The position numbers were made by a program. Shown here piece by piece: positions 25,201 to 28,200 of a stretch of 64,000 bases of DNA; the stretch's first letter is position 1; each line of letters begins with the position of its first letter. Source of the stretch: Escherichia coli (GTDB taxonomy: Bacteria; Pseudomonadota; Gammaproteobacteria; Enterobacterales; Enterobacteriaceae); assembly GCF_045037415.1 (NCBI RefSeq), contig NZ_CP173438.1; one strand, written 5' to 3'.

Positions 25201-28200
25201 GGTTTAGGCGATGACTTCACGCTGAAAATGGGCATCGCCCGCGCCTATAAAGCGCCGAGCCTGTACCAGACTAACCCAAACTACATTCTCTACAGTAAAG
25301 GTCAGGGCTGCTATGCCAGCGCGGGCGGCTGCTATCTGCAAGGTAACGATGACCTGAAAGCAGAAACCAGCATCAACAAGGAGATTGGTCTGGAGTTCAA
25401 ACGCGACGGTTGGCTGGCGGGCGTGACCTGGTTCCGTAACGATTATCGCAATAAGATTGAAGCGGGCTATGTAGCTGTAGGGAAAAACGCAGTCGGCACC
25501 GATCTCTATCAGTGGGATAACGTGCCGAAAGCGGTGGTTGAAGGTCTGGAAGGATCGTTAAACGTACCGGTTAGCGAAACGGTGATGTGGACCAATAACA
25601 TCACTTATATGCTGAAGAGTGAAAACAAAACCACGGGCGACCGTTTGTCGATCATCCCGGAGTATACGTTGAACTCAACGCTGAGCTGGCAGGCACGGGA
25701 AGATTTGTCGATGCAAACGACCTTCACCTGGTACGGCAAACAGCAGCCGAAGAAGTACAACTATAAAGGTCAGCCAGCGGTTGGACCGGAAACCAAAGAA
25801 ATCAGTCCGTACAGCATTGTTGGCCTGAGCGCGACCTGGGATGTGACCAAGAATGTCAGTCTGACCGGCGGCGTGGACAACCTGTTCGACAAACGTTTGT
25901 GGCGTGCGGGTAATGCCCAGACCACGGGCGATCTGGCAGGAGCCAACTATATCGCAGGTGCCGGGGCGTATACCTATAACGAGCCGGGACGTACGTGGTA
26001 TATGAGCATTAATACTCACTTCTGAAGCTAACGTCAGATTGTTGACAAAGTGCGCGTAGTTCATGCCGGATGCGGCGTGAACGCCTTATCCGGCCTACAA
26101 AAATCTTGCCAATTCAATATATTGCAGGACCACGTAGGCCTGATAAGCGTAGCGCATCAGGCAGTTTTGCGTTTGTCATCATTCTCTAATATGGTTGACA
26201 TGAAAACTACGCATACCTCCCTCCCCTTTGCCGGACATACGCTGCATTTTGTTGAGTTCGATCCGGCGAGTTTTCGCGAGCAGGATTTACTCTGGCTGCC
26301 GCACTACGCACAACTTCAACACGCTGGACGTAAACGTAAAACAGAGCATTTAGCCGGGCGGATCGCTGCAATTTATGCGCTGCGGGAATATGGCTATAAA
26401 TGTGTGCCTGCAATCGGCGAGCTACGCCAACCTGTGTGGCCTACGGGGGTATACGGCAGCATTAGTCACTGTGGGACTACGGCATTAGCCGTGGTATCTC
26501 GTCAACCGATTGGCATTGATATCGAAGAGATTTTCTCTGTACAAACCGCAAGAGAATTGACAGACAACATTATTACACCAGCAGAACACGAGCGACTCGC
26601 AGAATGCGGTTTAACCTTTTCTCTGGCGCTGACACTGGCATTTTCCGCCAAAGAGAGCGCATTTAAGGCATGTGAAAGACAAACTGATGCAGGATTTCTG
26701 CGCTACCAAATCAGAAATTGTCAGCATCAACAGATGAATATAAGCGGGCCGAATGGCGACCATATCGTGCAGTGGTTAGTAAGGGGTAATAATGTTATTA
26801 CCTTGTGCCTGGCAGATAAACACCCGCACACTGCAGCATGCGGGTTATCTGGCGGGTAATTCAAAGCATTTCCCGTGCCTGAGCTGCAATTCCGGCAGCA
26901 TCAAATCCATGATGCTGACGCAACCACCCACGATCCGCCGCTGCGGCATATTCTCCATCCATAATGCCTGCGCGTTTTAATGTGATCCCCGTTCCGGCCT
27001 CTGCCAACACTTCCGCGACCAGGCTACCAAGGCCGCCATTGACGTTATGCTCTTCAACCGTCATCACTGCTTTGCATCCTTTTAACGCTGCCAGCAATGC
27101 TTTGGTGTCGCATGGGCGAATCGACGGTACGCTGACAACTGTAGCCGCGATACCAGACTGCGCTAAAAGTTCTGCGGCATCGACCACTTCATGAACGGTA
27201 GAGCCTGTGGCTACCAGCGCCAGTTCGCTGCCCTCGCGCAAAGTCACCACGGCACCTGGTACAAATCGGTAGTCCTCATCGTGGATTTCCGGCAGGGCTT
27301 TACCGTCCATACGGATATAAACAGGCCCCTGATAGCGAAGAGCATAATCAATCACCTGACGGCACTCCCGCGGTGAAGACGGGGCAAAGATTTGAATATT
27401 GCCGAAACCACGCATAACCGCAATGTCATCAATCGCATGATGCGTGCTCGCCAGCGGTCCATAACTCGCCCCGGCATTCAGACCGAACAATTTTACGTTG
27501 GTAAAGTTGTAGCAGACATCAACCTTGATTTGCTCGTTAGCGCGAGCGATAAGAAACGGCGCGGCATTGCAGGTAACAGCCACCTTGCCGCCCAGCGCCA
27601 GCCCGGCAGCTGTACCAACCATGCTCTGTTCGGCAATACCCACATTCACCAGTCGGTCAGGGAATTGCTTAATAAAGGGAGCAATTTTTGCCGTAGACGT
27701 TGAATCAGCCACCACAGGCACCAAATCGATCCCCTCATTTACGGCATCGATAAACGCCTGAACCATCACATTTGCCAGATGTTCACTGTTACGCATCTTT
27801 GAGTTCCTCCAGTGCCTGTTCAATTTCATCGCCTTTCGGCACCCGGTGATGCCATTCCGCACGCCCTTGTATAAAGGAAATGCCTGCCCCTTTAGTGGTG
27901 TGGGCAATCACCACATTCGGTTTGCCTTCCTGTTTAAGCTCTTCAAGCGTCGCGACAACCGAAGCCATATCATTGCCCTGACATTCAGTAACCTGCATAC
28001 CGAATGCCAGCCATTTCTCTGCCAGAGGATCGGTGTTCATGATTTCGCGCGTTGGCCCGGCTAATTGCAGATTATTTTTGTCATTAATAATGACCAGGTT
28101 ATCAAGCCCGTAATGCGCCGCCGCCAGTGCAGCTTCCCAGTTACTGCCCTCAGCCAGCTCACCATCGCCAGTAATTAAGAAGATACGACGACGGCTTTGA

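Follow-up and report, generated by a model that had tools for sequence, protein, structure and literature searches.

The stretch of Escherichia coli DNA considered here (NCBI RefSeq assembly GCF_045037415.1, contig NZ_CP173438.1; 64,000 nucleotides (nt) in all, hereafter the window) carries the enterobactin-region gene entD directly beside a convergent cluster of genes for D-apiose catabolism. In this window entD is probably a mosaic produced by recombination where it borders the cluster, with the gene itself undamaged. That entD is inherited together with the cluster has already been published at whole-gene resolution: the entD tree tracks apiose status, and entD travels with the cluster (PMC13001218). 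That paper treats entD as a whole, without intragenic breakpoints, the tail of 13 amino acids (aa), the 1-nt spacing to the cluster or the palindrome described below. The present analysis adds where homology breaks within entD, the encoding of the tail by a palindrome, synteny with Citrobacter on both sides of the cluster and the conservation of the post-cluster hairpin in cluster-less Escherichia.

The entD reading frame and its junction with the cluster

26200–26859, plus strand: entD coding sequence (CDS), 219 aa plus stop; based on the open reading frame (ORF) list, the RefSeq annotation of SK1144, Pfam and an AlphaFold2 (AF2) model

The frame opens at MKTT; an alternative start at 26191, chosen in an earlier note on this DNA, would add MVD before it. 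The entD stop is the TAA at 26857–26859, base 26860 is T, and the TCA at 26861–26863 is the TGA stop, on the minus strand, of the transketolase C-terminal subunit gene aptB (junction letters at 26851–26866: ...GGC GGG TAA T TCA AAG...). The two stops are thus 1 nt apart, as the earlier note had read them. The RefSeq annotation of SK1144, which is 100% identical to the window over the tested 2.3 kb, has the same layout, with an entD of 660 nt and a 'transketolase family protein' that begins 1 nt further on. The 219-aa length of EntD is genuine and reflects no stop-codon error.

The same note had put the EntD C-terminus down as longer than, and different from, that of the K-12 protein. The peptide that it quoted (...FKACERQTDAGFLRYQIRNCQHQQ...VITLCLADKHPHTAACGLSGG) matches the actual translation, and pairwise alignment bears the note out. 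Counted from the MKTT start in both, EntD has 219 aa in the window vs 206 aa in K-12, and the two are 84% identical in a BLASTP alignment of 206 residues; nearly all mismatches lie past residue 157, and 13 unmatched residues follow. Two outcomes that the note had named as speaking against its idea, a C-terminus identical to that of K-12 and homology running unbroken past the stop, were looked for by alignment, and neither was found. K-12 EntD (b0583, 206 aa), a Sfp-type 4′-phosphopantetheinyl transferase, is encoded in the same place after fepA and has the same two-domain fold as the window EntD. It differs in lacking the 13 extra residues, and its gene is followed by a 22-nt spacer and a hairpin, IS186 and hokE, not by aptB at 1 nt.

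Homology to K-12 breaks within entD

26200–26670, plus strand: native host-lineage part of entD, codons 1–157, containing the GIDIE and FSAKESAFK motifs; 84–99.8% nt identity across Escherichia
26671–26711, plus strand: 41-nt patch ACERQTDAGFLRYQI, of the cluster-haplotype type in the window allele and K-12-like in other cluster-positive E. coli alleles
26712–26817, plus strand: cluster-linked hypervariable C-terminal module of EntD, codons 172–206; 90–98% identical among cluster-positive lineages, 47–50% to the K-12 type

Similarity to K-12 falls from about 95% to about 49% at the nucleotide level at 26671–26712. When 25700–28000 was compared by megablast with 5426 complete E. coli genomes, the match was full-length in 629, and in the others it ended at window positions 26670–26700. 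Upstream of the break, entD nt 1–471 are 84–99.8% identical by position across all Escherichia tested, with or without the cluster, and residues 1–157 of the window protein are 95.5% identical to those of K-12. Downstream, over entD nt 513–618 (window 26712–26817), the alleles form two classes that are 90–98% identical within each and 47–50% between them. The K-12 class takes in E. albertii, E. whittamii and Escherichia sp. E1V33, at the protein level E. fergusonii belongs to it too, and alleles of this type remain alike at 90–98% genus-wide, E. albertii included. As protein, the cluster-linked module (residues 172–206) is 34% identical to the K-12 type.

The tract at 26671–26711 behaves differently from both neighbours. 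In the window allele it is 90% identical to Escherichia sp. MOD1-EC7003 and GCA_039856675, the only sharers of its type, and 80% identical to ST131 strain 5392, itself 98% K-12-like in that tract. Because the type of the patch differs between cluster-positive alleles, 26671–26711 marks alternative crossover points. The left boundary of the divergent segment is a recombination breakpoint that varies by allele: homology to K-12 breaks at 26671 here and at ~26709–26712 in other cluster-positive alleles. The suggestion in the earlier note that the junction may lie inside the entD 3′ end is thus borne out.

Variation of this kind is also seen in cluster-less E. coli, in which two sub-alleles of entD codons 158–190 occur (cf. 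window 26671–26760), a GN05064/SCU-105 type reading IQAAQG...IIIRLEDEQ and a K-12/O157 type reading IQTDAG...VIIHRENEM. A fragment from the European Nucleotide Archive (ENA), P0003, joins the 'ACERQ' patch of the window to a K-12-type end. Together, the sub-alleles and the ENA fragment indicate that the 3′ third of entD is a general recombination mosaic.

The 3′ end of entD is inherited with the cluster

The last 190 nt of the window entD were found in 630 of the 5426 complete E. coli genomes, and aptB was found in 630 of the 5426; in 629 the entD 3′ end and aptB lie in one contiguous match. The cluster-positive loci inspected comprised 5 E. coli alleles, Escherichia sp. MOD1-EC7003 and two further divergent lineages, and every one encodes an EntD of 218–219 aa ending 1 nt from aptB. 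All cluster-less loci inspected encode a 206-aa EntD, with hokE 121 nt further on and, in K-12, IS186 in addition. Linkage to the cluster is confined to the 3′ 150–190 nt of entD, which is new relative to the published whole-gene view.

A donor of the divergent C-terminus was sought in protein collections. A 78-aa C-terminal query against an index of 5.8 billion proteins returned E. coli fragments only, and with full-length EntD as query the tails were found only in cluster-positive Escherichia. An exhaustive scan of 1.84 billion representatives gave nothing nearer than the K-12 type, at 61%. The scan of genome contigs used N-terminal peptide patterns and yielded only 5 Escherichia loci; the Citrobacter loci discussed below were reached by a search for encoding contigs.

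The divergent C-terminus is an EntD C-terminus

The two C-terminal types align codon for codon, and Q177, I181, V190, W192, VITLC and D206 are conserved between them. This alignment rules out both a frameshift origin and a fusion to foreign DNA for the new C-terminus. Both Pfam domains expected of the protein score above their cut-offs, 4PPT_N (PF17837) at residues 37–100 with 67 bits and ACPS (PF01648) at residues 103–193 with 48 bits. The catalytic and metal- and CoA-binding motifs GIDIE (D107, E109) and FSAKESAFK (K151, E152) all lie upstream of the breakpoint, and G105, D107, E109, F148-S149-A150-K151-E152 and K156 are invariant in an alignment of 61 EntD sequences.

The AF2 model computed from this 61-sequence alignment has a predicted local distance difference test (pLDDT) score of 86.5 and a predicted template modelling (pTM) score of 0.84; a 17-sequence alignment had given a pLDDT of 52 and an unusable model. 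In the model used, the cluster-linked residues 170–205 form four beta-strands with a pLDDT of about 90, and these are the last four strands of the Sfp-type fold, while tail residues 208–219 stay below 50. The top Foldseek matches of the model are PcpS (7bcz; E 5e-14, template modelling score 0.74), PptT and Sfp. From the motifs, the fold and the conservation of the 219-aa ORF in 630 genomes, we infer that EntD would retain phosphopantetheinylation of the EntB and EntF carrier domains. The functional consequences are probably small, the catalytic part being native and the tail predicted to be disordered.

The last 35 residues of EntD evolve fast in general: between C. amalonaticus and C. freundii they are 47% identical (aa), the N-terminal part 75%. 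The ratio of nonsynonymous to synonymous differences per site (pN/pS) is 0.3–1.2 in the last 35 codons vs 0.12–0.36 in the first 157, on small counts. Compared with Citrobacter, the cluster-linked C-terminus shows 26–43% aa identity and the K-12 type 12–26%; the outgroup residues QHxQM, VQW and GN are present in the cluster-linked type and lacking in the K-12 type. If either C-terminus deserves to be called 'remodelled', as the earlier note had put it for the window protein, it may be that of K-12.

The 13-codon tail and its palindrome

26818–26859, plus strand: 13-codon tail KHPHTAACGLSGG plus TAA; lacking in K-12-type and Citrobacter EntD by alignment
26808–26856, no strand assigned: 49-nt imperfect palindrome; outer arms 26808–26819 and 26845–26856, inner stem 26822–26845 (inverted repeats I2 and I3)

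Codon 207 (26818) is AAA where the K-12 type has TAA; the frame then crosses the palindrome and stops 1 nt short of aptB, and the junction in Escherichia holds about 40 nt more than that in Citrobacter. The outer arms of the palindrome are CCTGGCAGATAA and TTATCTGGCGGG, and the inner stem is ACCCGCA...TGCGGGT. A terminator scan of the minus strand found a 10-bp stem (6 GC) followed by GTTTATCT, 15 nt past the aptB stop, as the best such site in the region; the region holds 6 sites vs 4.2 expected, so that the match alone is weak. As RNA, the palindrome folds at −28.2 kcal/mol on the plus strand (z −3.3) and at −26.9 kcal/mol on the minus strand (z −2.4). Across 5 lineages 95% of stem cells are paired. 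In MOD1-EC7003 the outer and inner stems form a perfect 18-bp stem with two compensatory pairs (GATA/TATC to GGCA/TGCC), and differences in the tail peptide (DKHPH...SGG vs G-NPH...PGR) follow the stem changes. On the same analysis, the Citrobacter entD–aptB junctions showed neither the palindrome nor a comparable terminator-like site. Rfam gave no match at the tail, its only hits being derived from repetitive extragenic palindromic (REP) sequences between fepA and entD. A dispersed repeat of the REP or enterobacterial repetitive intergenic consensus (ERIC) type was considered for the palindrome and rejected, as there is one copy per genome.

To judge from its sequence, the palindrome most likely ends the convergent aptA–aptB operon as a candidate terminator. 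The remark in the earlier note that the two stops leave 'no room for a terminator' is misleading, a terminator-like palindrome being lodged within the 13-codon tail of entD. The tail itself is probably a passenger translation of this candidate aptAB terminator, predicted to be disordered and neutral for EntD. Bidirectional intrinsic terminators occur between convergent genes. The window palindrome resembles them in being a GC-rich palindrome at facing stops with a U-rich run on the minus strand; unlike the usual ones, it lies inside the CDS of one partner (the last 13–17 codons of entD).

A bolder reading would make the palindrome a working bidirectional terminator that couples the two operons: ribosomes finishing EntD would melt the hairpin that ends aptAB, so that entD, which iron starvation induces, would influence the apiose operon by way of read-through, antisense transcription or changed mRNA 3′ ends. 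On this view Escherichia would have gained the palindrome by insertion for that purpose, since the Citrobacter junction is without it. We regard this coupling as quite improbable.

A different EntD tail is seen in C. amalonaticus GCA_002918935.1 (locus L018:6001–6903), which has a 237-nt entD–aptB spacer with ERIC-like inverted repeats and an EntD of 221 aa ending in 14 other residues (...AMRYTQNHSGCIEATSE). This is an independent case of an EntD tail gained at the same junction.

The D-apiose cluster and the corresponding site in Citrobacter

26861–27796, minus strand: aptB, apulose-4-phosphate transketolase C-terminal subunit, 311 aa (Pfam Transket_pyr and Transketolase_C, annotation; name from PMC13001218)
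27789–28619, minus strand: aptA, transketolase N-terminal subunit, 276 aa (Pfam Transketolase_N, annotation)
28982–37809, plus strand: rest of the D-apiose cluster (SK1144 annotation, NCBIfam, PMC13001218), collinear in Citrobacter
37818–37847, no strand assigned: right-boundary hairpin TCGCCCGCAGCC...GCGGGCGA, at which, in the junction alignment, identity to cluster-less strains resumes

The cluster block spans 11 kb (26861–37809). Its minus-strand operon consists of aptA and aptB, which overlap by 8 nt, with a promoter-like site at 28861–28832 (minus strand). The rest encodes a SorC/DeoR-type regulator, the FGGY kinase aplK (506 aa), two short-chain dehydrogenase/reductase (SDR) oxidoreductases and a ribose-type ATP-binding cassette (ABC) transporter made up of a substrate-binding protein, a DUF2291 protein, an ATPase and a permease. 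The published cluster is defined by aptA/aptB and aplK within 10 consecutive CDSs; in the window all of them lie within 26861–31803, and the block follows entD in DNA that is 100% identical to that of the ST131-type strains SK1144, 81009 and ZH063. It shares with the published cluster the split aptA/aptB transketolase, aplK, the ABC transporter, the two oxidoreductases, the place and the lineage (ST131), and by gene content and place it is that D-apiose catabolic cluster.

The apiose pathway was first assigned by Carter et al. (cited in PMC13001218). In E. coli the cluster is core to STc131 and STc14, always downstream of the enterobactin genes (J Bacteriol 2026, PMC13001218); it also occurs in some E. 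fergusonii and E. sp002965065 and is absent from E. albertii, E. marmotae, E. ruysiae and E. whittamii (PMC13001218). Growth on D-apiose has been reported for ST131 C1/C2, ST1193 and E. fergusonii ATCC 35469, and an ancient acquisition at the emergence of B2 has been proposed, for which no progenitor was found (PMC13001218).

The annotation from entD to hokE contains neither an integrase nor a transposase, no tRNA was found in 20000–42000, and the two junctions share no direct k-mers of 8 nt or more. The GC content is 49.4% in the cluster vs 50.5% in the flank. Without integrase, tRNA or direct repeats and with an unremarkable GC content, the block is not a classical integrative island.

In C. 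amalonaticus, C. freundii and C. farmeri, a collinear apiose cluster runs convergently towards entD and is separated from it by 3 nt. These junctions are like that of the window in the convergent entD/aptB arrangement with almost no spacer and in the conserved hairpin after the last SDR gene; they differ in their tail-less 207-aa EntD, and synonymous sites are saturated relative to E. coli. Beyond the cluster, a genome of the C. freundii complex has an acetyltransferase gene and then ybdK (GCS2) and ybdJ (DUF1158), the latter two as in E. coli (L025:5620–7943). In C. amalonaticus, a betTIBA operon is inserted between the cluster and the acetyltransferase gene (L021:10741–17068). Since the Citrobacter cluster has matching flanks on both sides, the site is orthologous, and since the abutment is the same, the stop-to-stop junction is an inherited arrangement and no insertion scar. 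The insertion that the earlier note had implied, one cutting into entD and remodelling its end, therefore falls away: the segment in question is in frame and homologous to EntD C-termini, and Citrobacter has the abutment too.

Identity at four-fold sites between E. coli and Citrobacter is 31–43% for the cluster genes and 29–54% for the ent genes. In every cluster gene, as in the ent genes, the two Citrobacter species are closer to each other than either is to E. coli (e.g. aptB nt identity 76/76 vs 81%). A recent transfer of the cluster from Citrobacter was considered and rejected on these grounds, the four-fold sites being saturated and E. coli standing outside both Citrobacter clusters.

The hairpin CGCCCGCAGC...GCGGGCG lies 9 nt past the stop of the last SDR gene (SDR2) in the window, in C. 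amalonaticus and in the C. freundii complex. The same hairpin stands 22 nt past the entD stop in all cluster-less Escherichia examined, E. albertii included, and is single-copy in the window. The entD–hokE arrangement of K-12 was probably derived by deletion, with the terminal hairpin of the cluster kept. Given the two-sided synteny and the post-cluster hairpin, the published proposal that the cluster was simply acquired when B2 arose needs qualifying; they would make the cluster an orthologous locus, perhaps an ancestral one, lost by most Escherichia.

Origin of the chimeric entD

The mosaic reading builds on results that we regard as established, namely the linkage, the breakpoints, the homology of the replaced segment, its predicted fold and the Citrobacter synteny. 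Codons 1–157 are entD of the ordinary E. coli kind, and the remaining 49 aligned codons come from a divergent haplotype block that holds the whole apiose cluster; codons 158–171 are of the cluster type in the window allele, and codons 172–206 in every cluster-positive allele. The block occupies the Citrobacter-equivalent site between entD and the ybdK side, and homologous recombination with cluster-less E. coli would have replaced its flanks as far as similarity allowed. On the left, the limit would be the last 35 entD codons (106 nt), which are 49% identical in nt between the haplotypes, so that crossovers stop at ~26712, or at 26671 here. On the right, the haplotypes match fully once the hairpin is reached, and the boundary would be sharp at the indel.

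This resembles the spread of accessory blocks by recombination in flanking core genes (e.g. the high-pathogenicity island, ref. 87 in PMC13001218), in which likewise an accessory block and part of a core gene move together with no integration machinery at the junctions. Unlike that spread, the left boundary here would be set by a hypervariable gene end too divergent to recombine, giving a stable chimeric protein. The phenomenon is of a known kind, a mosaic core gene beside an accessory block that homologous recombination has spread or kept, and its interest is modest. Because entD in ST131/ST1193-type E. coli is chimeric, whole-gene trees and core-gene alignments mix two histories.

How the cluster haplotype came to stand beside native entD is a separate matter, and the choice between deletion elsewhere and re-import of the block is made by inference. 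We favour re-introduction from an unsampled relative, because the two types differ from each other ~five times as much as K-12-type alleles differ across the genus. The strongest competitor supposes an ancient presence/absence polymorphism without any import: the cluster haplotype would have descended vertically since the ancestor shared with Citrobacter, and the K-12 type would have arisen by deletion, its C-terminus then diverging fast. The two-sided synteny with Citrobacter is what it would predict, as are the parallel divergence of cluster and ent genes from Citrobacter with E. coli as outgroup and the presence of the cluster-linked allele in several divergent Escherichia lineages. The closer likeness of the cluster-linked C-terminus to Citrobacter would likewise indicate a long K-12-type branch. 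However, the last 35 codons differ by about 50% in nt between the types, against about 10% between E. albertii and others of K-12 type, so the polymorphism must pre-date the genus and have survived all its speciations, and the cluster is lacking in E. albertii, E. marmotae, E. ruysiae and E. whittamii. We consider this history unlikely, though a good deal less so than the next two.

Accelerated or diversifying evolution of the C-terminus in situ after the cluster arrived, for example under selection on the partner specificity of EntD and with no foreign entD, would account for the raised pN/pS of the last 35 codons and for the hypervariability of the same segment among Citrobacter. It fits poorly with synonymous sites that are saturated between the types when within-type pS is only 0.06–0.16, with a sharp boundary that shifts by allele (26671 or ~26712) as crossovers would make it, and with the outgroup residues that the cluster-linked type has and the K-12 type has not; we hold it to be very improbable. 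The insertion of a classical island into the entD 3′ end, truncating the gene and fusing it to island DNA with a possibly impaired C-terminus, would explain the break of K-12 homology within the gene, the longer ORF and the stops 1 nt apart, but is largely refuted and scarcely credible, given a replaced segment that is homologous to EntD and folds normally in the model, the lack of integrase, tRNA and direct repeats with unremarkable GC, and the same abutment in Citrobacter with an orthologous right-flank hairpin.

Several points weigh against the mosaic reading or parts of it. The sameness of the two sets of 630 genomes is taken from their counts, not established genome by genome. Outside Escherichia, the searches described above turned up neither a donor nor a close relative for the cluster-linked C-terminus; the haplotype may therefore be either a retained ancestral one or a re-import. 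The orthology of the hairpin would be explained equally well if the cluster had long ago entered an ancestor between entD and its hairpin and had later been transferred, the outgroups compared being cluster-bearing Citrobacter. As to the palindrome, its covariation rests on 5 sequences and is not significant (79 of 500 shuffles equal the 2 compensatory pairs). Its plus-strand U-tract is weak (only UUAUCU), and on that strand the hairpin lies within the entD CDS, that is, in translated RNA; because of these two features, the palindrome is perhaps a weak terminator of entD itself, but doubtfully so.

Minor features of the flanks

37919–38071, minus strand: hokE, first of two copies (annotation, translation); the right-flank gene that cluster-less strains also have

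In the window hokE occurs twice in tandem (37919–38071 and 38421–38573), and a (pseudo)mok-like ORF overlaps each copy. There is a single copy in K-12, where IS186 separates hokE from entD, and one or two in other strains. At 37894–37911, between the cluster and hokE, stands a second hairpin, GCGGGGATTGCTCCCCGC; some 90 nt of sequence about it show roughly 85% conservation with the SDR2–betT spacer of C. amalonaticus. This conservation implies either that sequence like the hokE 3′ flank was at the site before hokE or that the spacer is ancestral and shared. The K-12 spacer 'ATCTGGTA' was also considered as a remnant of the last SDR2 codons ('ATCTGCTGGTAA') and set aside, as the spacing needs extra indels; it is a weak hint at most.

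On the other side of entD, the fepA–entD spacer at 26035–26141 is filled by repeats of the REP and bacterial interspersed mosaic element (BIME) type, with Rfam ES036 above its gathering score and naRNA4 below. These repeats explain why the first genome search by megablast gave roughly 199,000 'places'.

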